From positions 1 through 61,427 of the IMG/VR virus record IMGVR_UViG_3300035670_000214: DNA of 61,427 nt; one strand, 5' to 3'. The notes under the pieces are model-generated. The model saw only the letters and a list, made by a program, of their open reading frames with translations, searched no databases and was not told the DNA's origin. The DNA is from a virus. Taxonomy: Duplodnaviria > Caudoviricetes. The position numbers were made by a program, and so were the translations under genes. Position 1 is the first letter of the stretch; each line of letters starts with the position of its first letter. Positions 10,561-28,110 of the stretch are shown here, in pieces.

Positions 10561-10580
10561 TTGAAGCAAGAGTAAAGTTA

Positions 10581-10606
10581 GGATACTCTTCGGAGTATCT
10601 ATTTTA
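10581..10606 (+). terminator. Terminator-like hairpin after MCP
   Basis: GGATACTC-TTCG-GAGTATCT followed by ATTTT. Confidence 0.65.
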
Positions 10607-10732
10607 CAGCTTAATAATTAATACTCGGATAAAAGGGAGTCGGCCAACCCCGCAAGTTCTTTTAAGAACTAGGCCGAAACGTTTTTGGGGTACCGTACAA
10701 CCCCTACCTCACTCTACCCATGAGGACGCGGG
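10607..10732 (+). promoter_or_regulatory. Structured leader A upstream of the first fibre gene
   Basis: CGGCC/GGCCG enclosing AGTTCTT/AAGAACT; GGGG/CCCC; CCTCA/TGAGG; CCCGC can pair with GCGGG next to the ATG. Confidence 0.5.
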
Positions 10733-11872
10733 ATGGCAACCAGATATACCACCAATCTACGTTTGCGCATTGAGGATAACCTCACCGCAGACGCCATATA
10801 CAACCTTCAACGTATAGACGAACTGGGAGCTGTATTCAAGCTCTCGACCAGTAGCACAGTCGAACTATCCTCAGCTGAAGACGTGCTCATCCAACCAAAT
10901 AATCCAGCAGCAGGTGGCTCGGGCGTAGGCGGACTCGTTCGCGTAGGTTCATCGGGTCAACCAGCCGATGACATTAATCTATTCGCTAGTCGTGTCAACT
11001 TCTCCGCTCAGACTGTAGACTTCGGCAACGCAAATCTATTAGGCAACTTCACTATACCATGGGACAGGATTGACGCTAGCGGTGGCGGAAGTGTAGCTAA
11101 CTTTCCAGACTTTGAATCAGCCGTACTAGCCATACCAGCAGTATCAGCTAATACCTCTCACCCAAGCATTATCGGTAACCCACACCAGACTACCGCAGCT
11201 GACGTCGGAGCTTACAGCACGAGTCAAATTGACGCACTACTTGCAGCCAAAGCTAACCTTAGCCTATTAACGACCCACACTAGCGCAAGTACTGGAGTCC
11301 ACGGTATTACTGGTGCGGTTGTAGGTACAACTGATGCTCAGACTCTTAGCAATAAGTACCTAGACGCTGACAGCAACCAAATAGTCAACCTCAAGAATGC
11401 CAGCATAGCTGAGGGTGCTAACATCCACGGTTCTAAGATTAGACCGCTGTTCGGGAATCAACAGGTCCAGACCTCAGCAGGTCTACGCCTAGATGGCGCA
11501 TCCCAATACGTGGTTCTTCTACCGTCTGCTGCCGTCCAAGCTACACCCCTAAGCTTTCGCCTTCCTAGCTCTTATGGCTCGGCAGGCCAGGTGCTTGCCA
11601 CAGATGGCAACGGCAACCTTAGCTGGCAGAATACCGCCGGAGCTGCCATCAGCGAGGAAGTCTACCTCTGGCTTGATACCGATGGGGTACAGAAGACCGT
11701 CATCCATAACTTTAACAGTCAATCCCTCGACATTACCATTAGAGATACTACTGACAATGAATTAATCTACGTACCAGACATTAATTTCCTTGACAATAGT
11801 ACCCTAGTTCTGATAAGCTCTGAACCACCAAGCAATGCGTGGCAAGTAATAATACAAGGAGTAGCTAAATGA
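10733..11872 (+). CDS. Virion fibre or decoration protein 1
   Basis: VVGTTDAQTLSNK and GQVLATDGNGNLSW fibre motifs; C-terminal HNFN beta-domain. Confidence 0.7.
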   Translation: MATRYTTNLRLRIEDNLTADAIYNLQRIDELGAVFKLSTSSTVELSSAEDVLIQPNNPAAGGSGVGGLVRVGSSGQPADDINLFASRVNFSAQTVDFGNANLLGNFTIPWDRIDASGGGSVANFPDFESAVLAIPAVSANTSHPSIIGNPHQTTAADVGAYSTSQIDALLAAKANLSLLTTHTSASTGVHGITGAVVGTTDAQTLSNKYLDADSNQIVNLKNASIAEGANIHGSKIRPLFGNQQVQTSAGLRLDGASQYVVLLPSAAVQATPLSFRLPSSYGSAGQVLATDGNGNLSWQNTAGAAISEEVYLWLDTDGVQKTVIHNFNSQSLDITIRDTTDNELIYVPDINFLDNSTLVLISSEPPSNAWQVIIQGVAK

Positions 11873-13659
11873 AAATTTTCGGTAGTATCAGTAGGTTGGT
11901 GAGTATCATCTTCCGCAAAGACGGTCAAGATGTTACTTTCCGCCCAAATCAGTCAACCACTTACACAGCAGCCCGTGACATCCAGTTGCCAGTTGGCGAC
12001 GCTGACCATGAATTGGTTGGCAAGGCCGCTAGTCAGACGCTCACTAACAAGTCAATGTCTGGCGATGACAACACATTCTCAAACATTGGGATTAGCTCCC
12101 TTAAGACTGCTCTGTCTGACGCAGACAAGTTGCTACTTCGTGACGTATCCGGCGCAGTAGTATCTGCTAAGTTGGAAGACAAGCACGTTGCCGCTGGTGC
12201 AGCCATTGCCCTCAGCAAATTGGCAGCCCTCACAGCTAGCAAGGTACTTGTATCTGATGGCTCAGGCGTCATCAGCGCATCTAGCGTAACTAGCACTGAA
12301 CTCGGCTACCTCTCTGGTGTAACCTCTGGTATCCAAAGCCAATTGGACGCACTCTCTGCTTCTAGCTCTGGCGCTCTTTCAGACGCTATCGACGACATCC
12401 AAGCTGATATTGCGGCCCTCACCACTGACGACATCGAAGAGGGTTCTTCAAACCTGTACTTCACCGACGCTCGCGCTCAGGCAGCAGCTGTCGTTGACAC
12501 TGGCTACGCTGGAACCGAAACTAACAAGGCTCCTTCTGTCCGTGCAGTTGTTGCAGCTATCCAAGACGTAACTGACGCTATCGACAGCCTCCAATCTAGC
12601 CTGGAAGCTGCTGACGACGCTTTGGCCGCTGACATTGCTTCTGAGGCTTCTGCTCGTGCAGCTGCCGACAGTTCGCTTCAGACTGCCATCGACAATGAAG
12701 TGTCTGCTCGCCAATCTGCAGTTTCCAGCGAAGCTAGCACACGAGCCGCCGCTGACCTTTCTCTCCAAGCTGAAATTGACGCTGAAGAGATTGCACGTGC
12801 TGCAGCCGATGACGCTCTCGACGCTCGTTTGGACGTATTGGAAGGCGCAGACACAGTAGCTGGTTCAGTAGCCAAAGCGCTCAAAGATGCTAATGCTTAT
12901 ACTGATACTGAAATCTCTGCTCTTGAATCCTCAGTCAATAGTTCAGTTTCTGCCCTTGAATCTGCAGACGATGCAATTGAAGCTCGCCTCGACATCCTCG
13001 AAGGTTCAGCTGCAACTGTTGGTAGTGTTGCTAAAGCCGAAGCTGACGCTAAAGCTTACGCTGACCAAAAGATTGCTGACCTTATCGACGGCGCTCCTGC
13101 CCTCCTCGATACACTTAATGAATTGGCTGCTGCTATTGGCGACGACGAGAACTTCGTCACCACTATCACTACCAGCATCAGCAATGAAGCCTCGGCTAGA
13201 GCTAGTGCGGATACCACGCTCCAGAACAACATCAACGCCCTCGAGACTGCTCTCGAAGCCGCTGACTCTGACCTCCAGGACGCTATCGACGCTGAACAAG
13301 CTCGTGCCGAAGCTGCCGAAGCTACTCTCCAGTCGAACATCGACCTCAAGCTAAATAAGCCTAGCTCAGGTGACGCAGCGGATAAATACCTCCGTAGCAA
13401 TGGCGACGGTAGCACCTACTGGGACGTAGGCTACATTCTTCCAGTCTACAAAACTAACTGGGTTGCAGCCGCTGGTACAAGCAAGACTGTCTCCCACAAC
13501 CTCGGTTCAACGGACGTGGTCGTCAGTCTGGTGGACCTGAGCGATAACCAGGTTATCGGCGTAGATAGCATCGTCGTAACGGACAGCAACACAGTAACAC
13601 TCTCCTCCTCGGAGGCTCCTTCGGCTTCCGGCTGGAGAGTTATCGTTCAGAAAATCTAA
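11869..13659 (+). CDS. Coiled-coil fibre protein 2
   Basis: ExxARxxAD repeats; TTDDIEEGSSNLYFT; APALLDTLNELAAAIGDDENF; C-terminal HNLG domain. Confidence 0.8.
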   Translation: MKIFGSISRLVSIIFRKDGQDVTFRPNQSTTYTAARDIQLPVGDADHELVGKAASQTLTNKSMSGDDNTFSNIGISSLKTALSDADKLLLRDVSGAVVSAKLEDKHVAAGAAIALSKLAALTASKVLVSDGSGVISASSVTSTELGYLSGVTSGIQSQLDALSASSSGALSDAIDDIQADIAALTTDDIEEGSSNLYFTDARAQAAAVVDTGYAGTETNKAPSVRAVVAAIQDVTDAIDSLQSSLEAADDALAADIASEASARAAADSSLQTAIDNEVSARQSAVSSEASTRAAADLSLQAEIDAEEIARAAADDALDARLDVLEGADTVAGSVAKALKDANAYTDTEISALESSVNSSVSALESADDAIEARLDILEGSAATVGSVAKAEADAKAYADQKIADLIDGAPALLDTLNELAAAIGDDENFVTTITTSISNEASARASADTTLQNNINALETALEAADSDLQDAIDAEQARAEAAEATLQSNIDLKLNKPSSGDAADKYLRSNGDGSTYWDVGYILPVYKTNWVAAAGTSKTVSHNLGSTDVVVSLVDLSDNQVIGVDSIVVTDSNTVTLSSSEAPSASGWRVIVQKI

Positions 13660-14002
13660 CTTTGGCTAATAGGAGCTGGACGTTAGATTAAGTTACCTTC
13701 GGTAACCAATCTAATGTCGGCCCCTTCGCCTTATAACGAGGGCCAGGGTTGGCCCCCGCTTCCCAAGTATAGGATGTACTTGGCTGACGACATTTAGACG
13801 GGTCAGATGATATTAAAAAAATATCGTGGTGACACTTTAGATGTCAACTTGTAACTTTACTTTTCAGGTAGGAAGAGCTAAAGTTATTCACGCATCCTAC
13901 CGAAGAGTCCTTCAGACTCTAAGTTACGTGATGGGTATCACTTAACCGGTCGGATGAGCATAACATCGGGGCGACACCCCGCCAATAAGGAGAAGCTAAA
14001 GT
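13660..14002 (+). ncRNA. Large structured RNA or cis-regulatory leader B (family not recognised)
   Basis: 343 nt without an ORF, almost tiled by 10 or more hairpins, with alternative anti-RBS pairing. Confidence 0.65.
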
Positions 14003-17000
14003 ATGAAGATTTTTGGTAGTATCAGTGAATTGGTTGACTTAGCCTTTAGACTCGCTGGCGGGAAGCAAGTGAAGCTTCGCTCCGCTACCCAGACCACCGC
14101 AGGTAGCACAGTAACAGTAAACGTCCCGGACGTAGCAGCTACCGGTGACACGCAGAACATGATATTGACGAATGCTACTCAGACCTTAACTAATAAGACG
14201 CTGACTAGCCCAGTAGTTAGCGGTGGTACCATCAACAACTCCATCATCGGCGGGTCTACCCCAGCAGCTGGTACCTTCACTGACATCGTAGGTTCTACGC
14301 TCGATATCAATACTTCCGCCGAGTTACAGACACTTACTATTCCTAGCTTATCAACAGCTGGTGTATTGCACAATAACTCCTCAGGCGCAGTAAGTTCTTC
14401 CCTTGTCGTTAACGCCGACGTAGATGCTGCAGCAGCTATCGCATTTAGCAAATTGGCTACCCTCGCTTCCGGAAATATCCTCGTAGGCTCTAATACAGGC
14501 GTAGCTACCTCTCGTGCAGTCACTGGTGATGTAACCATCAGCGACCTTGGTGTTACCGCCATTGGCGCTAGCAAGGTCACCGATAGCATGCTAGCTGGTA
14601 ACATAGCTAGAACTAAGCTGGCTACTGGTAACAACTACCGCATACTTGCTAACGATTCCTCAGGTGCAGTGTCTGAGAACGCTGCTTTGACAGCTAACGA
14701 AGCAGTAGCTACCGATGCAAATGGCCAACTGGTATCAGTAACCGGCGTATCCGCTACTGAACTGGGTTACTTATCTGGCGTAACATCCGACGTCCAAACA
14801 CAAATAGATAGTAAGCAAGCAGCTGATGCTACCCTTACTGCTATTGCTGGTGTAACCACTGCCGCCGATAAGTATATCTACTTCGATGGTGTAGATAGCG
14901 CACAAGCAGCTACTATCACCTCATTTGCTCGCGGCCTTTTGGACGATACTAGTGCTACTATAGCCCAGAATACCCTGGGTTTGGGCTCTATGTCCACCCA
15001 GGCTGCCACCAGTGTTAATATTACCGGCGGCACCATACAGACAACTAACCTTCAGAATAACACCCTGAACGGCCATAAACTCGGTTCTGGTTCTGCAAGC
15101 ATTGCTAGCTCTACTCTAACTCCAGCATCTAATAAGTCACTTCAACTTATCGCTTCAGCAGCCAACTTCGGCATGATAGCCAGTCCAAGTGACGGACAGG
15201 AATATGTCCTCGTCAATGAATCTGCATCTGACATTACTATACAGAATCTTACAGGCGCTACTGCAGCTAACCAAATTTATACTGGTACTGGAGCAGATTT
15301 TACCTTTAAGGCTAAATCAGCCGTATCAGTAGTCTACGACGGTACACTTAGCAAGTGGATGTTGACTGGCGGCGGCGGTGGAGCTGGTGGACTTGCTACC
15401 ACCTACGTTACAGCTGGCGGCATCACTGCAGTCAAGAATACTCACTACCTTACGAATCTGGCTGCATCGGGCCAGACCATTACTCTCCCAGCTGGTGTTG
15501 ATGGCGACGTCATCCGCTTCTCTGACGCAGGTGAAGTCTGGGATGTATACCCACTTACCATCGCCCCAGCAAGTGGCGAGAAGATTGATAAGCTTGCGAT
15601 AGATGAGACGCTCGTATGTGACGTCAAGCGCGGCTGGGTTGAGCTCTCCTACAACAGCACCTTCGGCGGCTGGGCTTTCATGTCTCTGGCTTCCAGCTCT
15701 GGCAGTGCCTCTGGCTCTGGCGAGATTAATGCTGTGCTTAACGCCTCGGCAGCAGCTGACACTACTGGCTGGACGAATGCTACACGCGTAAGCTCTGGCT
15801 CACCTTTGGACCCAGTTGTCACTACAGCCCTCAGCATTTCAAATGTGGCAGCTTCCGAAGGCCCTACCTCAGGTGGCTACTACTCTATCGCAACAATGCC
15901 AGCTTCATTACGAAGCAGAAAACTTAAACTAGAATTCTACTATTCCACACCGGCTACAGATGTGTACAAGGTGTCGGTTTATGCCGGTTCAACCAGACTG
16001 TCCCTCAGCAGTGACAACTCAGGAGCTACAAGCCTACCAGCCAACGTAACAGGAGGCTTCTTCAGCGCATCCTTCGACGCTACTACAGCTTCGGCTTACA
16101 CACTGAACATCACCCGTACCTCCGGTACTACTGGCGCAATCACGGTTACGAATGTTGTCGTAGGCCCAGGCATCGTAGCTCAGGGTGCAGCTATTAGTGA
16201 GTGGCAGAGTTATACGCCTGCAAGTACGCAAGGTTTTGGTAATCCCACTGCTACGGTTTATAGATATAAACGTTCAGGTAGCTCAATAATTGTCTCCGTG
16301 AAATTTACCGCTGGCACGGTTACAACTGACGAAGCACGTATATCCCTCCCGTCCGGGCTCACGAGCGCAACCACAAATGCATTGACTATGGTGGGAGCGT
16401 ATGCAAGGGGTACAGGTACTACAGCATCGGCAAATCAAGTATATATTGAAAACGGTGCGGCTTACTTAACTTTTGGACGGGCAGATGGAACCTTAGCTGG
16501 ATATGCTAAGCGGCAAGGTAGTCAGCTTGTTTCCGCTGGTGAGGATTTTGGTTTTACTACTGCAGAAATCCCCATCGCTGAGTGGGCCGGAAATGGCACA
16601 GTCAATTTGGGACAAGGTGCTAACCTCGAATATGCCTTTAATAGCTCGGCTACCACCACGACGGACACGACGAGTTTTGGCTATGGTCCGACCGGCGCTG
16701 CTTTTGCTGCGTTTGCTCCAGGTGGAACAGCAAGTGTAGATAAACGAGTCAGGTTTCAGTATCCAATACAACAAGATGATGAATTGGTTGTCGAAGTGCA
16801 AGAAGCTGGTACTGGAACTTGGGTGCCCTTAATTTCCCGTTTAGGGGCTTTTTACAGCAACGCTGCAGGTACTACCTACTACGGGACTCAATTGATACGT
16901 GTATCTGGTAGCTCGACTGATGTTGATGTTGCATTCTACGCCGCAGCTCCATCTCAAGGAGCCTGGTCTTCATTAAGTACCTGGAAATGGCGAGTACGCA

Positions 17001-17494
17001 AAGCCAAGGCCAGCGCCCCTGTTGGTTTCGGTCTAGCTACAGCTGACCAAGCTGGTCTGTTACGTGGCTACAGCAACATGTCCAAGATTCGCCTGAATAC
17101 TGGTAATGGCTACGGGTCTACTAACACAGCTATCCGACGGTTCACTAACACAGTAGTTAATACCGGAACAGGTATTACCTACGCTGATAGTGCAACGCTT
17201 GGAGCTACGTTTACTGTCAATGAAGCTGGTATTTATGCAATATCGTATAGTGACGGATTTAATGCTGCAGCTGCTTTTGGGATTAGTTTAAACTCAACTC
17301 AATTAACAACAGCTATCGCAACTATTACAGCAGCAGACCGTTTGTGTATGTCAGTAACATCGGCAGCTGATTACCATTCCAGCGTCAGCGTAACTTTAGC
17401 CCTTTCTGTAGGTGATGTTATTCGCGCACATGCAGGAACTGCGGACAGTACAGCTCCTGTAAGAACGCAATTTACTATCCAACGTATCGGTTAA
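14003..17494 (+). CDS. Long tail fibre / receptor-binding protein 3
   Basis: 1163 aa, Ala/Thr/Ser/Gly-rich; QTLTNKTLTSP, TELGYLSGVTS and DATLTAIAG fibre motifs; C-terminal beta domains. Confidence 0.85.
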   Translation: MKIFGSISELVDLAFRLAGGKQVKLRSATQTTAGSTVTVNVPDVAATGDTQNMILTNATQTLTNKTLTSPVVSGGTINNSIIGGSTPAAGTFTDIVGSTLDINTSAELQTLTIPSLSTAGVLHNNSSGAVSSSLVVNADVDAAAAIAFSKLATLASGNILVGSNTGVATSRAVTGDVTISDLGVTAIGASKVTDSMLAGNIARTKLATGNNYRILANDSSGAVSENAALTANEAVATDANGQLVSVTGVSATELGYLSGVTSDVQTQIDSKQAADATLTAIAGVTTAADKYIYFDGVDSAQAATITSFARGLLDDTSATIAQNTLGLGSMSTQAATSVNITGGTIQTTNLQNNTLNGHKLGSGSASIASSTLTPASNKSLQLIASAANFGMIASPSDGQEYVLVNESASDITIQNLTGATAANQIYTGTGADFTFKAKSAVSVVYDGTLSKWMLTGGGGGAGGLATTYVTAGGITAVKNTHYLTNLAASGQTITLPAGVDGDVIRFSDAGEVWDVYPLTIAPASGEKIDKLAIDETLVCDVKRGWVELSYNSTFGGWAFMSLASSSGSASGSGEINAVLNASAAADTTGWTNATRVSSGSPLDPVVTTALSISNVAASEGPTSGGYYSIATMPASLRSRKLKLEFYYSTPATDVYKVSVYAGSTRLSLSSDNSGATSLPANVTGGFFSASFDATTASAYTLNITRTSGTTGAITVTNVVVGPGIVAQGAAISEWQSYTPASTQGFGNPTATVYRYKRSGSSIIVSVKFTAGTVTTDEARISLPSGLTSATTNALTMVGAYARGTGTTASANQVYIENGAAYLTFGRADGTLAGYAKRQGSQLVSAGEDFGFTTAEIPIAEWAGNGTVNLGQGANLEYAFNSSATTTTDTTSFGYGPTGAAFAAFAPGGTASVDKRVRFQYPIQQDDELVVEVQEAGTGTWVPLISRLGAFYSNAAGTTYYGTQLIRVSGSSTDVDVAFYAAAPSQGAWSSLSTWKWRVRKAKASAPVGFGLATADQAGLLRGYSNMSKIRLNTGNGYGSTNTAIRRFTNTVVNTGTGITYADSATLGATFTVNEAGIYAISYSDGFNAAAAFGISLNSTQLTTAIATITAADRLCMSVTSAADYHSSVSVTLALSVGDVIRAHAGTADSTAPVRTQFTIQRIG

Positions 17495-17665
17495 TCCGGT
17501 CCCGAAGGGGACCATCCCGTTACTTCTAGCGAAGTAACTTCTGACTTGACCTGGCACCTCAGCAGGTTTACAATCTGAGGTGTATTCTTTCTGTTTTAAC
17601 CACTTATGGCTAACCCGTTCCCGACAGGGAACCTGGTGGCCATACAACGAATAAGGAATAAACGC
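17495..17665 (+). promoter_or_regulatory. Structured leader C
   Basis: Hairpins GGTCCC/GGGACC, GTTACTTC/GAAGTAAC, CACCTCAG/CTGAGGTG, GTTCCC/GGGAAC; TATTCTTT can pair with the SD region AAGGAATA. Confidence 0.6.
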
Positions 17666-18544
17666 ATGGCCAACTTGTCTAGTAAAACAGGCACCATTAC
17701 CACGCCTGTCCAGACCCAGATATCACTATCCAACAATGCCACCACGTCAGTTCAAGACATGTCTGCTTACGATTCCCAGGAAGTAACTGGCTTCGTATAC
17801 GTGGATGCAACCAACGACCTCCGCTGCAGCTTTAGCGTAACCGTCGTCAAGAACGGCGCAGGCACTTACGAAGTTGCAGCAGTAGACCAATCTGGTGATA
17901 ACTATTCCTCAGCCCCGCTTCTCACGTTTAGCATGAGTAGCAGCACCCTCCGCGTAACTCTACCGAACGTAACAGGCTTCGCATCCGCCTACATGCGCTA
18001 CCAACTCTCGGCCCCTTACCTCGGGGGTAACTACCCACTGAGTGTATCGGCTAGTCAGGTTTTAGGAAATGCTGCAGGTACAGCACCAACTGCTGGCTAC
18101 ATTGGGGAAATTAAGAAAAGCACAGTGACAACGGCAACAAATATACCGGGTGCAACAGGTACTTTTGCTGACGCAGCAAATATATCTATTACGGCAGGTA
18201 TTTGGTTGGTATATGGAGCAGTCAGTATTGCGAGAAACTCGGCAACATTTAGTTCTACAGACATTGCATGTGGATTTAACACGACATCAGGAAACTCAGC
18301 AGCAGGTCTGAAGGAAGGTATAAATTATATAAACCCAGCAGCTTTAATAACCACAACGTTCACGAGGGTTGATTTGGTTTTGCCTCCAACACTTGTCAGG
18401 TGCGATGGAACCACTATTACTCGTGAAGAAGATAGTGTAGCGTTTGCTTCCGGAACCACTTTGTACCTCAAGCTTTATGTAGCAGCATTTAGTGCGGCAA
18501 CGCCACAATATACTGGAAAATTTGTAGCTATTCGCATAGCTTAA
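17666..18544 (+). CDS. Two-domain fibre or receptor-binding protein 4
   Basis: AAGGA RBS favours ATG 17666 over 17606; GTAPTAGYIGE junction motif, then a beta-rich C-domain ending AIRIA. Confidence 0.75.
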   Translation: MANLSSKTGTITTPVQTQISLSNNATTSVQDMSAYDSQEVTGFVYVDATNDLRCSFSVTVVKNGAGTYEVAAVDQSGDNYSSAPLLTFSMSSSTLRVTLPNVTGFASAYMRYQLSAPYLGGNYPLSVSASQVLGNAAGTAPTAGYIGEIKKSTVTTATNIPGATGTFADAANISITAGIWLVYGAVSIARNSATFSSTDIACGFNTTSGNSAAGLKEGINYINPAALITTTFTRVDLVLPPTLVRCDGTTITREEDSVAFASGTTLYLKLYVAAFSAATPQYTGKFVAIRIA

Positions 18545-18847
18545 CAAGTTGGACTCTATCGAGTCCACCAGGCTGACCGAAAGGTCAGCTGTCTCCCTCA
18601 AAAATGAATTGAACGATAAGGAAATGGGGGGGTTGCTAACAGCAACTGGACGTTTCCAACCAACAACAGATAAACAATCCACTCTGGCGGGTGTCCTTAA
18701 AAAGATGTGACTGTTGCCAATCCCACTAACGTGGTCCTGCAACTTCGCATTTACCCCCGCCAGAATCCGCCCTAACGGGCGTCCTATCAACAGATTCAAC
18801 AACCTTCATTAGAAAGGGTAAATGCGTGGCTACTAGATACATAAGGC
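18545..18847 (+). ncRNA. Pseudoknotted structured RNA D (family not recognised)
   Basis: Crossing helices 18683-90/18757-64 and 18746-56/18816-26; GAAA and UAAC-loop hairpins; long closing helix. Confidence 0.65.
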
Positions 18848-19267
18848 GTGAATAAGGTACAGAGCTCAAATGACGGGATAGCACCACCAGATGGATACAT
18901 TGGAGAAATAAAATCAGTATCTACAGCAACGGCTATTACTACTTCTAATTCAAATCTTGCAACCCTAACATTAACTCCTGGTACCTGGATTGTGACTGGC
19001 GGATATCGCTTCGGCGGAGATGCTGTAGCAAGATACTTGATAATCAGCCTTTCTACTACATCTGCGACAGCGGACACAGAGGCAGGAAGAACTGTAGTAG
19101 CGGATTATAATACAGTGGGTGGTGTTGTAGGAGCAACTACATTCTCTCGTACTTTTAGAGTCACCTCGGTAGCTTCTACCCAAACTATATATCTTGTCGG
19201 CCTTACTTCCAGTGTATCCGGAGCAGCATCATTTTATGGTTATATTGAAGCAGTTCGTATAGCTTAA
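18848..19267 (+). CDS. Orphan paralog of the C-terminal domain of fibre 4 (possibly a silent cassette)
   Basis: GIAPPDGYIGEIK ... TPGTWIV ... AVRIA mirrors 18050-18544; GTG start without a well-spaced RBS. Confidence 0.7.
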   Translation: MNKVQSSNDGIAPPDGYIGEIKSVSTATAITTSNSNLATLTLTPGTWIVTGGYRFGGDAVARYLIISLSTTSATADTEAGRTVVADYNTVGGVVGATTFSRTFRVTSVASTQTIYLVGLTSSVSGAASFYGYIEAVRIA

Positions 19268-19330
19268 CAATCCGGCAATCCTACCCCTTACGGGGTAGTC
19301 CGGGCCATCGACTTGCCAGGGAGGCTAATT

Positions 19331-19636
19331 GTGAACCAAGAGCATGACGAGCAGACTAGGTGGCTTGTTTCTTATCTCGAAACTAGGTTCGGTCGGTTAG
19401 AGGATAGAATATCCTCCGTGGCCGAAGGACTTGAAGATAGGTTAGACCAGGCCATTATGGCGCAGTCGGTCAAGATTGATACTCTAGAGGAAAAGGTCAA
19501 CCAATTGGAGAATGACCACCTCAAGTTGTCGAACCAGGCTGGTCTGGTGCGGAATTTGCTTGCATTCATTGGCACAGGTATGCTATCCTTACTTGGTTGG
19601 GCGATTACTTACTTTTGGCCTACTGGCGGTAAGTAG
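19331..19636 (+). CDS. Coiled-coil protein with a C-terminal TM helix (holin or XhlA-like)
   Basis: GGAGG RBS before GTG 19331; heptads followed by LLAFIGTGMLSLLGWAITYFW. Confidence 0.55.
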   Translation: MNQEHDEQTRWLVSYLETRFGRLEDRISSVAEGLEDRLDQAIMAQSVKIDTLEEKVNQLENDHLKLSNQAGLVRNLLAFIGTGMLSLLGWAITYFWPTGGK

Positions 19637-19696
19637 TCCCTCGACCCCCCCCCCTCATACATCCTTGACCTAACTACTAATATAAGGAATAGACAG

Positions 19697-19966
19697 ATGA
19701 AAAAAGAACTACTCAAGAAGATGAAGTACGACATGCCTAAGGGCCCGAAGGGTGAAGCCCCTGAGGGAACTGAGATTGAGATTAGTCTTGGTGAGGAATC
19801 TGAGGAACTTGGCGGACCTAAAATGCCAGGCGAGTCCGAGGACGAGATGATGGCCGAAGAAGAGATGGACATGGAAGAGCCCGAAGCTCTCGACCTATCC
19901 CTCGCATCTGACGAGGAATTGATGGCTGAACTCAAAAAGCGCAAAGCTAAGCCAGCGATGGCCTAG
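19697..19966 (+). CDS. Small acidic disordered virion-associated protein
   Basis: AAGGA RBS; Glu/Met-rich; C-terminal SDEELMAELKKR helix. Confidence 0.6.
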   Translation: MKKELLKKMKYDMPKGPKGEAPEGTEIEISLGEESEELGGPKMPGESEDEMMAEEEMDMEEPEALDLSLASDEELMAELKKRKAKPAMA

Positions 19967-19992
19967 TCCTTTTAGACTAGGAGACCCTGATT

Positions 19993-20991
19993 ATGGCTAG
20001 GTCACTTACTACCCGCCAGTTGATTGCTGCCGTCCGCTCTCTCATTGACGAGCAGAACGAAGCAGAGATTAACGATACTATTGACATACTACCATCCCTT
20101 AACCGGGGATTCGATGACGCCATCGACATTCTAGCACGGCGCTACCCTGATGCCCTTATAACCAACCGCACTGTCTCCTTAAGCGAGGGCGATGAGGGTC
20201 TATTCCCCATCCCGGAAGATGCCTTTCAAGAGCGCTTAGAGAAGGTAGAAGCTAGCATCAATGGCTACTACACCGAGATTCAAAGGATAGACTACCGGGA
20301 CATTACCTACTACGATGTACCCCAGAACTCGGGTTCACCCTTCTACTACGCAGTCATAGGTTCAGATTATAAATTGGTCCCTCCGCCTTCAGGTATTGAT
20401 GGCCTTCGCATCTGGTATATACCAGAAGTAGGGCCACTCGTCGAGGAGTACGGGCGCATAACTGTGATAGGTACCGACAATTCGCTACCTACGGCAAGGT
20501 CGTACGTCAGATTGACCGACGTAACTGACCCTGACCAAGTTAGTCAAGATATAAGCTCCTTGTCTAGCTTCGTTAACCTCATCGACCACAGAACTGGTCG
20601 GATAAAGGCTACCCTCCAGATTGCTAGTATCTCAGGACCTAAGGTAATATTCAGTGCTAGTCCTAATAGGGCAGTTGTTCAGGGCCGCACTGTCAGTACT
20701 TCGCTTCCAGCAGGTACTGAGCTGGATGACTACCTCTGTCCGGTTGACGGTACTTGCATACCTCCTATGCGCTCTCCTTTGACCAACTTCCTCATTACCT
20801 ATAGTTCAGCCGAACTGAAAGCACTGAAGCTGGACGGCGACCCTAACGTGGTACTAGCTCAGCTTAAAAAATTCGAGGAGCGAATAGAGAAGACCTGGGT
20901 AAGAAGAGAGCAGTCTCAGCGAGTTTACCGAGCATCCAAGAACTGGGGTCCACGTACCAATAACCTCTGGGTGCGTACTCCGCGAACATAA
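19993..20991 (+). CDS. Head-tail adaptor (tail tubular protein A-like)
   Basis: LIAAVRSLIDE...LNRG...FPIPED...GSPFYYAV...LVPPP...IWY pattern; lies upstream of the nozzle gene. Confidence 0.7.
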   Translation: MARSLTTRQLIAAVRSLIDEQNEAEINDTIDILPSLNRGFDDAIDILARRYPDALITNRTVSLSEGDEGLFPIPEDAFQERLEKVEASINGYYTEIQRIDYRDITYYDVPQNSGSPFYYAVIGSDYKLVPPPSGIDGLRIWYIPEVGPLVEEYGRITVIGTDNSLPTARSYVRLTDVTDPDQVSQDISSLSSFVNLIDHRTGRIKATLQIASISGPKVIFSASPNRAVVQGRTVSTSLPAGTELDDYLCPVDGTCIPPMRSPLTNFLITYSSAELKALKLDGDPNVVLAQLKKFEERIEKTWVRREQSQRVYRASKNWGPRTNNLWVRTPRT

Positions 20992-20999
20992 GGCATACC

Positions 21000-21152
21000 A
21001 TGGCTACTACTAAAGAAGCAATAGCTAAGCTAAAGGACCAGGGTCCCTGCTGGAAGAACTACGAGCAGGTAGGGATGAAGCCGACCAAAAAAGGTAAGAT
21101 GGTGCCTAATTGCGTTCCTAAGAAGAAAAAGAAGGAAGGCGAAAATAAATGA
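21000..21152 (+). CDS. 50-aa basic protein with the CWxxY...MVPNCVP motif (absent from the ORF track)
   Basis: MATTKEAIAKLKDQGPCWKNYEQVGMKPTKKGKMVPNCVPKKKKKEGENK; motif familiar from small phage proteins. Confidence 0.75.
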   Translation: MATTKEAIAKLKDQGPCWKNYEQVGMKPTKKGKMVPNCVPKKKKKEGENK

Positions 21153-21200
21153 TGGCAGTCACAATCCCTGCGGTCACAGTGTCTGTGAAGGAGCCTGAAT

Positions 21201-21467
21201 ATGGCAGTCACTAAGAAGGCAGTATCAAGCCTAAAAGATAAGATGCCCTGCAATAAACCTAGACGGGCTAATGACGGTAAGCACGACTACGTAGTCAAGG
21301 CTTGCCAGGATGGTGAAGAGCGGATAGTCCGTTACGGCGATTCCAGTATGCCTAACCACCCAGATGACCCTGAACGTAGAGCGAACTTCCGAGCTCGACA
21401 TAACTGCGACGAGAAGAAAGATAAGTTCTCGGCTGGCTACTGGGCGTGTAGGAAACCAGCATGGTAA
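21201..21467 (+). CDS. DUF6321-like small basic protein
   Basis: IVRYGD...PERRANFRARHNC...KFSAGYWAC. Confidence 0.75.
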   Translation: MAVTKKAVSSLKDKMPCNKPRRANDGKHDYVVKACQDGEERIVRYGDSSMPNHPDDPERRANFRARHNCDEKKDKFSAGYWACRKPAW

Positions 21468-21520
21468 CTAACGAAGACGATTGGAAGATATTACAGATAG
21501 CATATACAGGGAGAGTAAAG

Positions 21521-21700
21521 ATGCCACTAGCTAAAGGTTACAGCCAAAAGTCAATCAGTAAGAATATCAGTAAGCTCAAAGAAGAAGGCTATGATGCCAA
21601 AGGTGGCAAACAAGCCGTAGCCATCGCCATGCAAACAGCTTGCAAGTCCTGTCGCAAAGCAGGCAAAGGCAAGTGTGAGATGTGTCAGAAGAAGGGTTAG
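21521..21700 (+). CDS. Small basic phage protein of the MPLxKG...KQAVAIA type
   Basis: MPLAKGYSQKSISKNISKLKEEG...KQAVAIAM plus two CxxC; GGAG RBS before ATG 21521. Confidence 0.7.
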   Translation: MPLAKGYSQKSISKNISKLKEEGYDAKGGKQAVAIAMQTACKSCRKAGKGKCEMCQKKG

Positions 21701-21733
21701 GCGTGCGTCATATTGACGTAGCAGGAGTAATAG

Positions 21734-21808
21734 ATGGCGACTAGATATCAGGATGTTAGGGTTGCCATAGGCAACTTGGATATATCGCCAACAGACAGGA
21801 TTAACTAA
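21734..21808 (+). CDS. Mini-ORF 1, MATRYQDVRVAIGNLDISPTDRIN
   Basis: AGGAG RBS; first 20 nt identical to the start of the 21883 gene. Confidence 0.45.
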   Translation: MATRYQDVRVAIGNLDISPTDRIN

Positions 21809-21810
21809 CT

Positions 21811-21873
21811 ATGGCTACGCGCTATCAAGACAAGTTGAGCTTACAGCTCACCACGATGTCCTTGCTGATATAG
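21811..21873 (+). CDS. Mini-ORF 2, MATRYQDKLSLQLTTMSLLI
   Basis: AGGA upstream; same heptapeptide encoded with synonymous codons. Confidence 0.45.
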   Translation: MATRYQDKLSLQLTTMSLLI

Positions 21874-21882
21874 GAGTTCTAA

Positions 21883-24800
21883 ATGGCGACTAGATATCAG
21901 GACATCTCCTACGGTAGCTTCGGTGGTGGTATAGACCAGCTCTCACCCGAGAGCAAGATACCGGATGACTTCGTAGAGCTTTTAGACAATGTAGACCCTA
22001 CGCCTAACGGCTCGCTAGTTAAGCGTACTGGTACCCAGCTATTCGGCTCGGTACCTGTTCGCGTTGAGCGTATAGAGTACATCCGTGTCGGCAGTCCTGG
22101 AGATTACTCCGGTGAGCTCTGCTTTTTCCTCGATACTAGCGTGGACGTTATCAGTCTTCGCTCTACCCCCATTTACGTCTACGGTAGAACCAGCGAGGGC
22201 CAAGCAGCTGGCGATTTCACCAGCGTTAGCTCCGGTAAGTACTACCCTAAATTTACAACTGACGTCCGGCAATCAGTACTTGAATCGGATGGTATAAGCG
22301 AGCAAACTACTACCATACTGCTAGAAGGTAATACCCACGACCAAGGTTCCCTTCTAGCCTTCGGCCTCTTCCAGAGTATTAGTAGCACTAACCTCGGTAA
22401 CCAGGTAATAGTACCTACCAGCGTTAAGGTAGATAAGCTAAGTGCCGACGTTACCGCCGAAGTAACTACTGGCTTGACTAGCGATGAATCGACCGTAATA
22501 TTTGATACCTTCGCCGTCGCCAAGTCAAGAGCATTCGACCCAGGTACCTCTTACGTCTACACCGCTAGCTTAGCTACAGCTGCTAGCTTTCCTAACCCAG
22601 TCACAGTTAGTATAGCAGCTGGTACCCATAACCTTACCAGCTTTAACATCCTGGCTGATTGCTACCTAGACAATGGTACCGAATACGAGCGTATAGTACC
22701 GGATAGCTACGTGATTACCCCGGCTGGTTCTGTTGAACTATCCTTTAGCTACTATCAGAATTTTAACCTAGTAGCCTGCCTCTACGCTGCACCCAGCAGT
22801 CAATCTAAGATGCAGCTTGTGGAGTCGGGCGAGATAAATGAAACTATAATAGTAGATTACCCAGATACTCCTTTCCTATTCTATCAGCTATTTGCCGAGC
22901 AGCTCGATGGTTCTCGCGTAGCCTTCTACGGTAGCGCCAATTTGGATACGGTAAACGCAGCAGCCGCTAGCGCCGTACTCGACGTAAGACTACTTCCAGG
23001 TGCAACCTCTGACTATCGTTCCACCTTTTACGTCACTAACCAATCTGGTACCGACCTTACTACCTTAACAGTTTGGGATTACGGAAGATTGGTTTCCAAC
23101 AAACTATGCGTAGAAGCAAGCGACCCTGTAATCGACACATTTGCAATAAGCATACCAGGTAGTGAGCATAAATTGGGGGAATTCGTAGCTACCACATTGC
23201 TACAATCCACTAACCCTACTAACCAGAATAACCTACTTATCCAGTATGACGAGGCTAGTACAGCAGTAGTAGACGACACCGTCACCATCAATCTGGCAAA
23301 TAATACCACCAGCCAATTTACTGCCTATGCCATTTTGGCCGATAGGTCTATAATGAGCGGAGCCTATCACCACCCGGCTACACTAGTTGCCGGAGGGACT
23401 ACTCAAACTATTAGCATACCAGCTAGTACGCATAACAAGGGTGCTGATGTAAACCTAAGCCTATTTAGAGTGGTACCGGGAACTGGAGCTACTACTAGCT
23501 ACGAGGAATTACCAGTAACCGATTTAACGATTAGTAGCACAGGCAATATCACCTTATTGGTAGAGAATACCGGAACTAGTGAATACTACGTAATACCGGT
23601 AGTATATTCCGTCACGAATACAGCCACTTCAGGTAGTATAGCTAGTGGAACTACCGGCACACTTAGTATCAGTAGCCTTACCAATCCATTTGCTTTCATC
23701 CATGTCTACCAGATATCTGGCACAGATAGAATACGTATAACCCCAGACCGCGTCTCTGTCAATAGCATTCTCGGAACTGGCAGTATTCAGGTGACTAATA
23801 ATACCGGTTCTGCCCTGACGTATAAAGCATTGTGGGACTACGCCGACTATACCAGCGAAGAGGTGGTTCCTATCACGTCTAGCAGTGGTACTGGTTATAG
23901 GGATAATAACCCGCAGATGACTATCTGGGGTTTACCTCACCGACAGTTGTACTCAGGTGCTACTGGCTCGACTCCAGGCTACGTAACTCACGTAGACGTC
24001 TATAGAGCGCAGGCAGAGGAAAGACCAGTCTGTGGACTTGGCGGAAACCTCTACAATGCTATAGACTTTAGCGAGGCTCCGGCTAGTTACGGTATGGGAG
24101 AATACTATCCTAACCTTAGAGCTAGGGTAGATACGCCAGTTGTAGTAGGCCCTGCTTTCATCAATACCACAGATAGCGATACTAGCCGAACTCAAGGTGT
24201 TATTCGTTTCACTACTGCTGGCAACAATTTGGCTGCCATCGTTCGCTCCGTCTACCAGCAAGGGACTGAAGCGTATCCTGATTATTCCTCTAGCTCCACC
24301 TACACTACCGGAGCTATCGTTAGATTTAACGCTAGCTACTACCAGGCGCTTATGAGTGTACCTGCAGGTCAGGCACCTAGCAATACTGCTTACTGGGAGG
24401 AGGTATTTGAGGGGCATGTAACCTATCGCCTTTACGTACCTAATCTAACTGTGATAGGCTCACTGTCACAAATATTCAATAGCAGCGAATTTCTCACCGT
24501 TAGCGGTATGGGTTACTCCATTAATAATGGTGAATTTAACGTTATAAGTGCAGCCCTGGTACCTAGCAGCGATTACCTGGACGTCACCGTCTATAACCCT
24601 GAGCTCGATACCGCTGACTGGAATGAAGCTAGTTCAGACGGAAGAGCTGGTATCTTCACTGACCGCATTCCTCTGGAAGTGACCTGCCCATTCTTCGAGA
24701 ACGATAGATTACTGTCAGCAAGCTGGGGCGAGGAGCAATTGTTAACCGTTACCGGCACTTCAGCTGGTAATGAAGTCCGCATGGATGGACTCTACGAGAA

Positions 24801-27800
24801 TGTAAGTATACCTGATGGTCTTCTCCTCGTCGGCTCTAGAACCAGCCGTATCATACCTCTCCGCTCGCTTAACGCTATACCTACTACCCAGAATCTGGTA
24901 GCAGGCGATATTCTTAGCTTCACTAACCTCAGCCGTGAGCTTAGAGCTAAATTCGTGAATCCACGGGCAGATGAGGTCGTTAGCATTTCCAGCAACCTCA
25001 GCTATACCTTGGACGACAATCCACCTGTCCGCGTCAATGTGGCCGATTCCAACCTATTCCAGGTAGGCCAGCGTATACTATTACTTAACGCTGGTCAGTT
25101 CACTGGCGAGCAGTTGATAGAAGAGATTATCAGCCCAACTCAGGTTCAACTAGTAGTTAAAGCTTATACCCCAGCACTGGGGGGATGTGTAATTTTTGGC
25201 TATAACGTCGAGGTAGACGAGGATTTTCCTTGGTTCGACAGCTTGACCTCTACCATCAGTTTCACGGTAACCAGACGCTGGTGGCCTATCGAGGAGCCAG
25301 ACAACGACTACCTGCAGTTACCTCCTAATAGGTACCGCTACTTCAACAGTGCTGCGTACGACAACCAGCCATTCCTCCGCTCTACCATGGTACAGGATAC
25401 CATGTATCTGACCAATGGTCTGGATGCGGTACAGCGCTACGACGGCCAGAACCTGACTAGGGCTGGTCTCTTCCGTTGGCAGGCAGGTCTATACCTAACA
25501 CTAGATACTACGACGGTAGGTAAGGTAGTACCTAATACCTATCAAATAGATAACGCTAAAATTGGCTCAGTTGGTAGTAACTTCTTTAACGTAGATAAGT
25601 ACCTTGATAAACACTTCGCTATTGGAGATGTTATACGTTATACCAATGTTACTAGCGGAGTTACGGTAACGCGAGACCTTACTATCACCAAAACCTGGGA
25701 AGGAAACACTGAATCTGTTATAGAAGTAGACACAGATGGTGTAGCCCTGCTAACTAGTGGTACTAAGACGCTTAATAAGGTAAGTACGTACTCCTATTAC
25801 TATCGCCTTAATATGATAGATGTTAATGGAAATATTATAGCTAGTGCCGTTACCAACGCACAAGATGCTAGGATAGATATAGCCCAAGCCGCTGCTATCA
25901 AGCACTTGCTTGTCCGGCCTCCGTTCCTAGATAACTTTGACTTCGCTCGTATCGAGATACAGGTGTACAGAACCAAGGCAAACTTAACTGGACCTTATTA
26001 CCTAGTAGCTACATTGCAGCCTAACTGGAATATCGGTGGCGAAGCCTACCTTGAGTTCACTGACACAGCTGCGGATAACACTCTCGCTAGCACCAACCTT
26101 GACCCAGTTAACGCCACACTCTTAGGGCAAGAATTGGGCCAGACTTGGTCAGGTCCTTTACGTAGTAAGTATCTAACTTCCAATTCCAATAGCCTTGTAC
26201 TAGCCAACTTCCGTAGCTGGCCTAGCCTAAGTCTGCGTCCTCAACGCCTAGCCGAGATAGAGAAGACGGAGTTAGCCGACTACGCAGGCCGTAAGCTATT
26301 AATACTAAAGGATAGTACTGACATTGGGCTTACTACCGATAACCTGAATAGGATGCAATTTGAGTTCCTCTCATCCGGTGCCCATACCATAAGTCTGTCT
26401 GGTGCAGCTATAGACTATGACACTAACGAATTGACTATAACTAATGCAAGTCATGGACTGGTTGAGGGTAACTGGATATATCTGTTCTTTACTAATAGCG
26501 GGCCAACTTCCATTGACCCACGAGTAGGCGGGCACTACCAGGTTAGTTCGGTAGTGGATACTAATAGCTTCCGTATCCAACTGTCCAACACCTTACTTGA
26601 TAGTATCAATACTTACCCACTTAACGGGCAGGACGTCAATCGTTACGTCCACGCTACTAATGCAAATGACGTGCCAGTCTGGATAGGTTCTGACCTATTA
26701 TATAGCACTAAAGCTGGTCTAAAGCAAGCCTCCGTTGACCCTAGCACCTTTGTATTCCTGCGACTTGCCAACGCTATCAATAGTGCGCAAGCTGCTTGTA
26801 ACACTCAAGATTTCGTTCCTTGGATGGTAGCTAACGCTGGTGGCGAGTGGCGAGATAATCGTATAGTAATCGAGACACCTTACGTCACTGATAGCAGGCT
26901 AGCAGCTATACTTCCTAGCTTTGATAACCTCATCATCTACGCTAACGAGCTTAGAGTTAACGCTGGCTCAACCGTACTTGCTGAAGTTCAGGTCTTCCCT
27001 AGCCGTATACTGGTGAGCTACCCTAACTATCCAGAAATATTTGATGCACCTTTAGCCTTCCTAGACACAGATAGTGAATCAGCTATCGACATCAATCCTT
27101 CAGATGGTCAAGAGATAACAGGGGTTATACCGTTCTTTGGCGAGTCGGCTTTCGGAGCTGCGCAAAAGGATAGTATCCTTCTGGTATTTAAGACTGCTTC
27201 CGTCTACCTAGTCAATATTGCGGCCAAGAGGGCAGGCCAGCCTTGCGTACAGCGCCTCGATACCAGAGGCCTTGGTTGTACCGCGCCGTATTCGATAGCA
27301 CCTACCCAGAACGGTATAATGTTCGCTAACCAATCTGGTATCTACCGTATTACCACTAACCTCCAGTGTCAGTACATCGGTCGCCGTGTAGAGCGTATCT
27401 GGAAGGAAGAAGTAGACCTTAACCAGCTAGACTTACAACTACACGGACACTATTACCCGCTGGGGCACCAGTACAAGCTGTCTGTTCCCTATCGGGATGA
27501 TGAGAGGGATTACTCCCAGCGCGTACTGGTCTACAACACCGTTCGGGAATACACGGCTGACGGGTACAGGGACGGTAGCTGGACTTCCTACTCTAATCTA
27601 CCAGCTATCGGCTGGGCTAACATGCTAAGACAACCACTGTTTGCAACCCCTAACGGAGAGGTATTTACTCTCCGCATGACTGGGGATAGCACAGACTACC
27701 GTGACGATGGCTCGCCTATCGAGGCTGTAGCTACCTTACGGGCTATGGACTTTGGCTCGGCTAGTATAAGGAAAGCGGTGGCTAGCTTTAACATGCAATT

Positions 27801-28110
27801 CCGACCAGAAGATAAGGATAGCGAGGTAGTCGTGGAGGCATCCATCGACCTCATCGACAACTGGGAGACCTTGGACCAAGCCGTGGTCAGTAAGCAACGG
27901 GTGGTCGGCAACATTAATAACAGGGCTACCCAAGACTTAGCAGTGATACAGTACATGAGCAATAAGCGCAAGGGTGTTTACTATCAGTTACGGGTAAGTA
28001 ACGGGAAGCTGGACCAGGGTATGCAGCTTAATGGAGCTAGCATGATGGTAGCAGGACTCGGGTCCGAGGGTATCATACAGGCTAAAGAGACAGGTACTGG
28101 TCGAAGCTAG
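21883..28110 (+). CDS. Giant tail nozzle / stabilisation protein (tubular B or P22 gp10-like) with large insertions
   Basis: N-terminal FGGGID...DNVDPTPNGSLVKRTG and C-terminal GCTAPYSI...GIMFANQSGIYR...VLVYN propeller motifs; 2075 aa. Confidence 0.75.
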   Translation: MATRYQDISYGSFGGGIDQLSPESKIPDDFVELLDNVDPTPNGSLVKRTGTQLFGSVPVRVERIEYIRVGSPGDYSGELCFFLDTSVDVISLRSTPIYVYGRTSEGQAAGDFTSVSSGKYYPKFTTDVRQSVLESDGISEQTTTILLEGNTHDQGSLLAFGLFQSISSTNLGNQVIVPTSVKVDKLSADVTAEVTTGLTSDESTVIFDTFAVAKSRAFDPGTSYVYTASLATAASFPNPVTVSIAAGTHNLTSFNILADCYLDNGTEYERIVPDSYVITPAGSVELSFSYYQNFNLVACLYAAPSSQSKMQLVESGEINETIIVDYPDTPFLFYQLFAEQLDGSRVAFYGSANLDTVNAAAASAVLDVRLLPGATSDYRSTFYVTNQSGTDLTTLTVWDYGRLVSNKLCVEASDPVIDTFAISIPGSEHKLGEFVATTLLQSTNPTNQNNLLIQYDEASTAVVDDTVTINLANNTTSQFTAYAILADRSIMSGAYHHPATLVAGGTTQTISIPASTHNKGADVNLSLFRVVPGTGATTSYEELPVTDLTISSTGNITLLVENTGTSEYYVIPVVYSVTNTATSGSIASGTTGTLSISSLTNPFAFIHVYQISGTDRIRITPDRVSVNSILGTGSIQVTNNTGSALTYKALWDYADYTSEEVVPITSSSGTGYRDNNPQMTIWGLPHRQLYSGATGSTPGYVTHVDVYRAQAEERPVCGLGGNLYNAIDFSEAPASYGMGEYYPNLRARVDTPVVVGPAFINTTDSDTSRTQGVIRFTTAGNNLAAIVRSVYQQGTEAYPDYSSSSTYTTGAIVRFNASYYQALMSVPAGQAPSNTAYWEEVFEGHVTYRLYVPNLTVIGSLSQIFNSSEFLTVSGMGYSINNGEFNVISAALVPSSDYLDVTVYNPELDTADWNEASSDGRAGIFTDRIPLEVTCPFFENDRLLSASWGEEQLLTVTGTSAGNEVRMDGLYENVSIPDGLLLVGSRTSRIIPLRSLNAIPTTQNLVAGDILSFTNLSRELRAKFVNPRADEVVSISSNLSYTLDDNPPVRVNVADSNLFQVGQRILLLNAGQFTGEQLIEEIISPTQVQLVVKAYTPALGGCVIFGYNVEVDEDFPWFDSLTSTISFTVTRRWWPIEEPDNDYLQLPPNRYRYFNSAAYDNQPFLRSTMVQDTMYLTNGLDAVQRYDGQNLTRAGLFRWQAGLYLTLDTTTVGKVVPNTYQIDNAKIGSVGSNFFNVDKYLDKHFAIGDVIRYTNVTSGVTVTRDLTITKTWEGNTESVIEVDTDGVALLTSGTKTLNKVSTYSYYYRLNMIDVNGNIIASAVTNAQDARIDIAQAAAIKHLLVRPPFLDNFDFARIEIQVYRTKANLTGPYYLVATLQPNWNIGGEAYLEFTDTAADNTLASTNLDPVNATLLGQELGQTWSGPLRSKYLTSNSNSLVLANFRSWPSLSLRPQRLAEIEKTELADYAGRKLLILKDSTDIGLTTDNLNRMQFEFLSSGAHTISLSGAAIDYDTNELTITNASHGLVEGNWIYLFFTNSGPTSIDPRVGGHYQVSSVVDTNSFRIQLSNTLLDSINTYPLNGQDVNRYVHATNANDVPVWIGSDLLYSTKAGLKQASVDPSTFVFLRLANAINSAQAACNTQDFVPWMVANAGGEWRDNRIVIETPYVTDSRLAAILPSFDNLIIYANELRVNAGSTVLAEVQVFPSRILVSYPNYPEIFDAPLAFLDTDSESAIDINPSDGQEITGVIPFFGESAFGAAQKDSILLVFKTASVYLVNIAAKRAGQPCVQRLDTRGLGCTAPYSIAPTQNGIMFANQSGIYRITTNLQCQYIGRRVERIWKEEVDLNQLDLQLHGHYYPLGHQYKLSVPYRDDERDYSQRVLVYNTVREYTADGYRDGSWTSYSNLPAIGWANMLRQPLFATPNGEVFTLRMTGDSTDYRDDGSPIEAVATLRAMDFGSASIRKAVASFNMQFRPEDKDSEVVVEASIDLIDNWETLDQAVVSKQRVVGNINNRATQDLAVIQYMSNKRKGVYYQLRVSNGKLDQGMQLNGASMMVAGLGSEGIIQAKETGTGRS

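Follow-up and report, generated by a model that had tools for sequence, protein, structure and literature searches.

The sequence analysed here (the window, 61,427 bp) is the complete record of an uncultivated, podovirus-like virus with direct terminal repeats, and we studied four sites in it at which a gene is preceded by a sequence resembling its own translational start. All four fall within the structural and tail module, where a P22-like portal gene lies at 1439-3463 and tail or tail-fibre-like genes occupy 10733-17494, all on the plus strand, as are the sites themselves and the genes that follow them. The original prediction had described these sites as four recurring triads (numbered 1 to 4 by position), each made of an upstream copy of the initiation region (the decoy), a sequence that would otherwise occlude the true start (the anti), for which the decoy competes, and the true start, and had read them as a general grammar running across the late operon. 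Every string quoted in that description was found at, or a few bases from, the position given for it. However, an upstream start copy beyond chance was present only at triads 3 and 4, and these two probably arose as by-products of recombination or duplication at conserved gene 5' ends. Among cultured phages, no DNA match to the window was found.

Triad 4 precedes a gene encoding a virion or tail-region protein of 2075 amino acids (21883..28110), whose N-terminus, MATRYQDISYGSFGGGID, is highly conserved. Three open reading frames (ORFs) at this site begin with MATRYQD, namely the big gene itself and two short upstream ORFs (uORFs) of 24 and 20 amino acids, uORF1 and uORF2. The uORF1 element, counted with its Shine-Dalgarno sequence (SD), spans 21723..21808, with the ORF at 21734-21808. 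Its 31-nt patch at 21723-21753 copies the SD and the first seven codons of the main gene (SD, ATG, and 17 more bases); ATGGCGACTAGATATCAGGA occurs at both 21734 and 21883, and together with the SD forms a 31-nt repeat that is 28/31 (90%) identical. In uORF2 (21811..21873, encoding MATRYQDKLSLQLTTMSLLI) the first seven codons repeat the main start with synonymous differences only, ATGGCTACGCGCTATCAAGA at 21811 being a synonymous variant of ATGGCGACTAGATATCAGGA. The three ORFs follow each other closely: uORF1 stops 2 nt ahead of the uORF2 ATG, whereas uORF2 ends with a TAG inside the main SD, 9 nt ahead of the main ATG. uORF1 carries an AGGAG 6 nt before its ATG, and uORF2 just an AGGA 10 nt upstream. 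A small hairpin, GTTGCC-ATA-GGCAAC, was read from the sequence and its folds within uORF1 (21762..21776).

Two other accounts of this arrangement were considered and set aside. A long tandem array did not fit, as Tandem Repeats Finder returned nothing over 21600-22100 and the units between the starts were not detectably homologous. We also discarded stop recoding or read-through as a link from the uORFs to the main ORF, in view of the two stops that lie between them in the window and of the out-of-frame uORF in the relative L002 (see below).

The big protein had no sequence match in PHROG, Pfam, or PDB, and no protein match among cultured phages; its N-terminus may resemble that of a T7-like tail tubular (nozzle) protein. 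Among its 18 homologues, the N-terminus was the most conserved part of the family, with a MATRYQD start in 9/18 and an M(AT/TA)(R/K)YQD start in 13/18, down to 38% identity.

At triad 3, the gene in question encodes an 88-amino-acid protein of phrog_7595, of unknown function, which starts MAVTK and is preceded by the SD GAAGGAG (21201..21467). Its upstream neighbour is a paralogue encoding a lysine-rich protein of 50 amino acids that starts MATTK (21000..21152). Between the two starts lies an upstream ORF of 20 amino acids (MAVTIPAVTVSVKEPEYGSH) at 21152..21214, which begins MAVT and stops 11 nt beyond the ATG at 21201. The string ATGGCAGTCAC is present at both 21152 and 21201. This upstream ORF opens with an ATG that shares bases with the stop codon of the gene before it (TGATG, 21150-21154), and the start with the SD GAAGGAG follows 49 nt further down. 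Taken over triads 3 and 4, the copied initiation patches measure 11 to 31 nt and comprise the SD, the ATG, and the first four to seven codons; the main ORFs are intact at both sites, and their N-termini agree with those of homologues.

We then asked how often a start is copied upstream across the genome, which the original prediction had proposed as a statistical check on itself. A simple ORF and SD rule gave 81 genes, 79 of which had enough upstream sequence. For each, the best ungapped match to the start region within 300 nt upstream was taken as the start-copy score, and the null comprised 6044 pairings of starts with permuted upstream regions, none of them from a neighbour within 700 nt. 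Triad 4 scored 15/15 and 20/21, values reached by 0/6044 null pairs. Triad 3 scored 12/15 (P=0.007), with two genes observed at a score of at least 12 against 0.56 expected. Triad 2 scored 10/15 (P=0.25). For triad 1, using the SD window, the score was 13/18 (P=0.018), and five genes were observed at 13 or above against 1.4 expected, one of the five being merely a neighbouring gene's own ribosome-binding site. No start-linked motif recurring at many starts was found in the 79 genes, where at least 1.4 genes are expected by chance at the score levels of triads 1 and 2. Thus, an upstream start copy beyond chance exists in only 2/79 genes, triads 3 and 4. The four triads are not one system and, because only these two genes exceed chance, there is no recurring pattern; the proposed grammar does not extend across the late operon, and of the four recurring cases two stand above the permuted-pair null and two sit at chance level.

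Because triads 1 and 2 scored at the level of the null, we read them as ordinary intergenic stem-loops in which one arm resembles the nearby start by chance. The triad 1 hairpin (13851..13887; -12.7 kcal/mol, z -2.56) has the proposed anti (13851-13865) as its 5' arm and the decoy (13870-13884) as its 3' arm, and the decoy string AGGAAGAGCTAAAGT at 13870-13884 is identical at 13/15 positions to the SD region AGGAGAAGCTAAAGT at 13988-14002. The downstream gene (14003..17494) encodes a tail protein of 1163 amino acids, whose N-terminus, MKIFGSIS, and SD context are common to the paralogue at 11869-13659; N-terminal homology between the two extends over about 170 amino acids (BLASTP E 9e-10). The only relative reaching this region gave no view of triad 1, its contig stopping within the homologue of the 14003 gene. 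In triad 2 (17605..17645), the decoy ATG at 17606 is paired to the anti TGGCCAT at 17637-17643, the 111-nt fold has a z of -2.0, and the hairpin sits directly upstream of the SD of a gene of unknown function encoding 292 amino acids (17666..18544). The strings ATGGCTAAC at 17606 and ATGGCCAAC at 17666 are in frame, spaced by 60 nt. Since the SD AAGGAA precedes 17666, we prefer this as the putative start over the in-frame ATG at 17606, which would give 312 amino acids and is without an SD. No homologue or relative of the 17666 gene was found.

The original prediction had itself named the absence of the duplications from relatives as evidence against it, and relatives were therefore sought for triads 3 and 4. 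A scan with a degenerate MATRYQD pattern returned 11 stretches, among which the only relatives were L003 and the L002 contig (there as L006); a second pattern scan returned the L002 contig only, a metagenome scan added one relative, L014, and a genome scan for further relatives of the big gene gave none. L014, with a big protein 93% identical to that of the window, has neither uORF1 nor uORF2, and shares the window's intergenic hairpin region. L003 (39-45% amino acid identity) has no uORF, only a 21-nt spacer from the upstream gene to the big gene. L002 (64% identity) has no uORF1 and a single upstream ORF of 22 amino acids, MATRYQDKLTFQVTRISSPVRR, orthologous to uORF2, with a GGAG 5 nt before its ATG and a stop 2 nt ahead of the main ATG. 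In the X5 contig, which diverges from the window by about 10% in DNA over 21871-22091, 26 nt replace 21697-21870 and the upstream copies are absent. uORF1 is therefore missing from L014, L002, L003, and the X5 contig. At triad 3, the upstream ORF at 21152 is absent in L002, where the second paralogue begins at a stop/start overlap with the first, and in a second X5 contig, which has 5 nt in place of 21144-21200; its arrangement is kept, with six substitutions, in L014. The duplications are thus largely absent from relatives, but L002 keeps uORF2 and L014 keeps the upstream ORF of triad 3.

The X6 contig shows directly what can become of such a copy. It is identical to the window over 21766-21828, has three differences over 21901-22100, and omits exactly 72 nt in between, so that the uORF2 start is joined in frame to the big ORF and the upstream copy is the real start of the big gene there. 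The joint falls inside the repeated TATCA(A/G)GAC, and the form shorter by 72 nt encodes the same protein as the window. The window's own arrangement was reproduced with 0 differences by the X3 contig over 21244-21870 and by the X4 contig over 21824-22005; one study yielded both these runs and the possible source of the window, so they are not independent support. Across the genomes examined, the start copies upstream of the big gene number 0, 1, or 2, and this presence/absence polymorphism among close relatives has its breakpoints in or at the repeats (X6, L014, X5, and L002).

The small hairpin within uORF1 is also found in L014 (at about 1896-1914), as GTTAACC-ATA-GGTTAAC, with both arms changed and no uORF around it.

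For the anti elements, the best duplex of positions -70 to -8 against -4 to +28 was compared with 1472 permuted pairs. Complementarity beyond chance was found at none of the four triads (P=0.81, 0.14, 0.09, and 0.26 for triads 1 to 4), and the predicted cost of opening the true starts was unremarkable (ranks 44, 49, 23, and 26 of 63 genes), so that the special occlusion of true starts that had been proposed was at background by both measures. Unusually stable folding was likewise not seen at triads 3 and 4, where z ranged from -0.7 to -1.6 relative to dinucleotide shuffles. A search of 10000-23000 against Rfam 15, with E up to 1, gave 0 matches.

At triad 4, two predicted structures were compared between the window and L002. 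Hairpin H1 lies within uORF2 (21836..21850) and pairs 21836-21841 with 21845-21850 (six pairs, one compensatory change). The stem H2/H3 (21855..21906) pairs 21855-21862 with 21899-21906 (H2) and 21867-21870 with 21895-21898 (H3), giving 12 pairs with two compensatory changes and none broken. In H2/H3, the 3' end of uORF2, which is the anti of the original prediction, pairs with codons 5 to 8 of the main gene (21895-21906) and encloses the SD and AUG; in the window this fold has -16.6 kcal/mol. The anti is predicted to pair at the true start in both genomes; in the window, neither its complementarity (P=0.26) nor the stability of the fold (z -0.70) exceeds background. Competition of the decoy for the anti is energetically possible in L002, where the decoy:anti and anti:start folds have -27.9 and -25.3 kcal/mol, but is not favoured in the window, where the corresponding values are -19.8 and -28.5 kcal/mol.

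The substitutions in the copies were also informative. The two starts of uORF2 and the main gene differ by 5 nt within the window and by 3 nt within L002, all of them synonymous, and by the standard code about one in five single-base changes in the six patch codons is synonymous. Between the window and L002, the first nine codons of uORF2 show four synonymous and no non-synonymous differences. Past codon 9, 8/8 substitutions are non-synonymous and the length changes from 20 to 22 amino acids; because all eight alter a residue, the tail of the uORF2 peptide is not conserved as protein. The pattern in the patch fits a history in which every copy either acted as a working start at some time or derives from one, as X6 shows directly. 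Over the 3' part of the patch (TAY CAR GAY), the copies of one genome resemble each other more closely than they do their orthologues, and over the 5' part less closely; the likeness of the 3' part suggests that the repeats have exchanged sequence, and it is there that the X6 joint falls.

Together, these results led us to favour, with a probability of roughly 0.7, the explanation that the copies at triads 3 and 4 are by-products of recombination or duplication at conserved gene 5' ends, with uORF2 perhaps co-opted for translational coupling, and that triads 1 and 2 are ordinary stem-loops with a chance likeness to the start. Recombination or template switching would duplicate a patch where 5' ends are highly conserved or common to paralogues. 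Where a duplication takes in SD, ATG, and the first few codons, the gene would stay whole, and the extra copy would become a short ORF soon hitting a stop; the same event within a gene would destroy it, so that the survivors would cluster at starts. Close relatives would then readily acquire and lose copies, in part because the repeats themselves recombine, and this ease of gain and loss suggests that they are dispensable. Ribosomes on the short ORFs, which end 2-9 nt ahead of the next start or shortly beyond it, would as a side effect be expected to supply or uncover that start, through termination-reinitiation or through unfolding of the RNA. In particular, translation of uORF2 would open H2/H3, whose 5' arm uORF2 encodes, which would be the RNA-unfolding form of coupling. 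Because the stem from the 3' end of uORF2 to codons 5 to 8 is conserved, such coupling may have become a selected feature of the 2075-aa gene.

The tail module appears to offer the short homologies that such events would need. At least four N-terminal residues are in common in 3/3240 gene pairs, and two of these three are pairs of tail genes. The gene at 10733-11872 begins MATRY, like the big gene at 21883-28110. The common N-termini (MATRY and MKIFGSIS) suggest tail genes with common anchoring domains and different distal parts, and conserved 5' ends in this module fit a role as short homologies usable for recombination. At triad 3, exchange from one paralogue to the other is a plausible source of the leader.

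Several observations weigh against a purely recombinational account. The comparison was small, comprising four relatives with DNA and the contigs of four runs. Outside the copied patches of 21-31 nt, no homology could be detected among the triad 4 repeat units (p 0.88, 0.04, and 0.78). Of the 38 nt that separate the MAVT copies at triad 3, just the 9 nt of GAAGGAGCC match the leader that precedes the other paralogue in L002 (P=0.012). A recombinational origin of the copies is what we infer, and triad 3 has no clear donor. The neat relay of stops and starts from uORF1 through uORF2 to the main gene could be selected and not accidental. Furthermore, across H1, H2, and H3 the window and L002 keep 18 pairs with 35/35 cells paired, three double-sided compensatory changes, and none broken, compared to 29-43% of cells paired when the partners were slid as a control. 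As this covariation comes from two sequences, with a shuffle floor of 62/500 and a structure picked after both had been seen, pairing conserved beyond the expectation for a pure relic is suggestive. Decoy, anti, and start also change jointly at two synonymous sites, from T/A/T to C/G/C and from C/G/C to T/A/T (alignment columns 15/58/87 and 21/48/93), which fits a three-way model and gene conversion between the repeats equally well.

A rival explanation, the original prediction narrowed to a single gene, is that the uORF2 leader of the 2075-aa gene is a selected translational control, in which the anti masks the start until uORF2 translation or decoy pairing unmasks it, resulting in low, coupled output. 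In addition to the conserved pairing and the joint changes, such control would account for the nearly iso-energetic alternative folds of L002 and for a uORF stop in or beside the main SD in both the window and L002. However, the device is absent from L014, despite its 93% identical protein, from L003, and from the X5 contig, and is collapsed in X6. The stem is no more stable than shuffles (z -0.70 and -0.61), the complementarity does not exceed that of permuted pairs, and decoy:anti pairing is about 9 kcal/mol worse in the window. We therefore regard leader control as possible, though unlikely. Less likely still, in our judgement, is its bolder form, a self-templated three-way switch of decoy, anti, and start at this gene, maintained by co-ordinated substitutions, with expression tuned by recombining cassettes of 0-2 copies.

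Two further explanations seem very improbable. The short ORFs might encode micropeptides mimicking the N-terminus of the big protein, MATRYQD, for instance to titrate an assembly partner or a nascent-chain factor; the heptapeptide is indeed the most conserved part of the family, and the first nine uORF2 codons differ between the window and L002 at synonymous sites only. However, X6 accounts for this synonymous pattern more simply, the same start being a real gene start there, and neither the divergent tails of 20 and 22 amino acids nor the absence of the ORF from close relatives suits a functional peptide. Equally hard to credit is an origin of all four triads in coincidence or misassembly. 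Triads 1 and 2 do score at chance level and the window is a metagenome-assembled genome, but no null pair attains the triad 4 scores, contigs X3 and X4 match the window without a difference (with the caveat on their source given above), and orthologous copies exist in L002 and L014.

We compared the arrangement with known systems. Translational coupling of adjacent ORFs is described, e.g., for genes VII/IX of phage f1 and the coat-lysis pair of MS2, and coupling by RNA unfolding and by ribosome scanning are both described (PMC12548453). As in such coupled pairs, the window has a uORF that ends a few nucleotides from the next start and whose coding part is predicted to pair with the downstream initiation region. 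Unlike them, its upstream ORF is a copy of the downstream start, has no product of its own, and is present or absent among near-identical genomes, and its coupling is a prediction. The distances are those of coupled ORFs, with 2 nt from stop to start between uORF1 and uORF2, 9 nt between uORF2 and the main gene, 2 nt in L002, and an 11-nt overlap for the upstream ORF at 21152. A narrow literature search, which did not include subscription journals, gave no case of an upstream ORF repeating the N-terminus of the downstream gene itself.

Mosaic recombination at gene boundaries is familiar in tailed phages, as in HK97/HK022, HK620, and the mycobacteriophages. The window resembles these cases in that breakpoints lie at gene 5' ends, conserved N-terminal coding sequence provides short homology, and relatives differ by the segments concerned, but differs in keeping an extra start patch that opens a short ORF, with no swapped gene. 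Programmed bypassing in T4 gene 60 involves a gap of tens of nucleotides, matched codons, and a stop after the take-off codon. Here too, matched codons flank the gap (GAC/GAC in the window and GAT/GAT in L002); a hairpin follows the first of them, and the second is preceded by an SD-like sequence. However, the ORFs are in frame in the window and not in L002, where they lie 71 nt apart. Bypassing of this kind was rejected, as the codon after GAC is AAG and not a stop; because the main ORF has its own AGGAG and ATG, bypassing is also not needed. The start-associated sequence SAS of Cluster K mycobacteriophages is one conserved start-linked motif found upstream of many genes. The copies described here share with it a start-tied element recurring within one phage genome, but each matches its own gene only, and in 2/79 genes.

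If the recombination reading holds, the phenomenon is mostly ordinary, in that recombination at conserved 5' ends would leave start copies that are born as short upstream ORFs, and it would caution against reading function into repeats near starts. The natural series of 0, 1, and 2 copies, together with X6, which uses the upstream copy as its start, would then offer a clear view of how phage operons can gain leader ORFs and coupling arrangements de novo. Should the conserved stem be functional, the leader would be a regulatory one made out of the start sequence of the very gene it precedes, of which the narrow literature search likewise gave no case.

Other features of the region were noted in passing. 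The 88-amino-acid protein at 21201-21467 is mosaic relative to its counterpart in L014 (1363-1620), with the first approximately 20 residues identical, a strongly diverged middle, and near-identical flanking genes, and we take the comparison as further evidence of recombination within the small-gene cluster. From the 332-aa gene to the first small lysine-rich gene, L014 (1081-1158) and L002 (3151-3236) have 70-90 nt of additional GC-rich spacer, against 8 nt in the window (20992-20999). Ahead of triad 2, a hairpin at 17555-17582 with a U-rich tail and a 12-nt loop looks terminator-like by eye only and, owing to the length of its loop, was not listed by the terminator scan; the promoter/terminator scan gave a count of sites not above that in shuffles.

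The spacer at 13660-14002, which contains triad 1, is 343 nt of non-coding sequence between two paralogous tail genes, and a 191-nt piece of it folds with -53.7 kcal/mol, a stability above that of shuffles (z -2.74). It had no Rfam match, and could be a decayed gene remnant or a holder of phage-specific signals. Finally, a 944-aa ORF at 4203-7037 has two kinds of ribonucleotide reductase (RNR) domain, alpha and class II insertion, as well as domains for intein splicing and of the LAGLIDADG type, and is probably a phage RNR gene carrying an intein.

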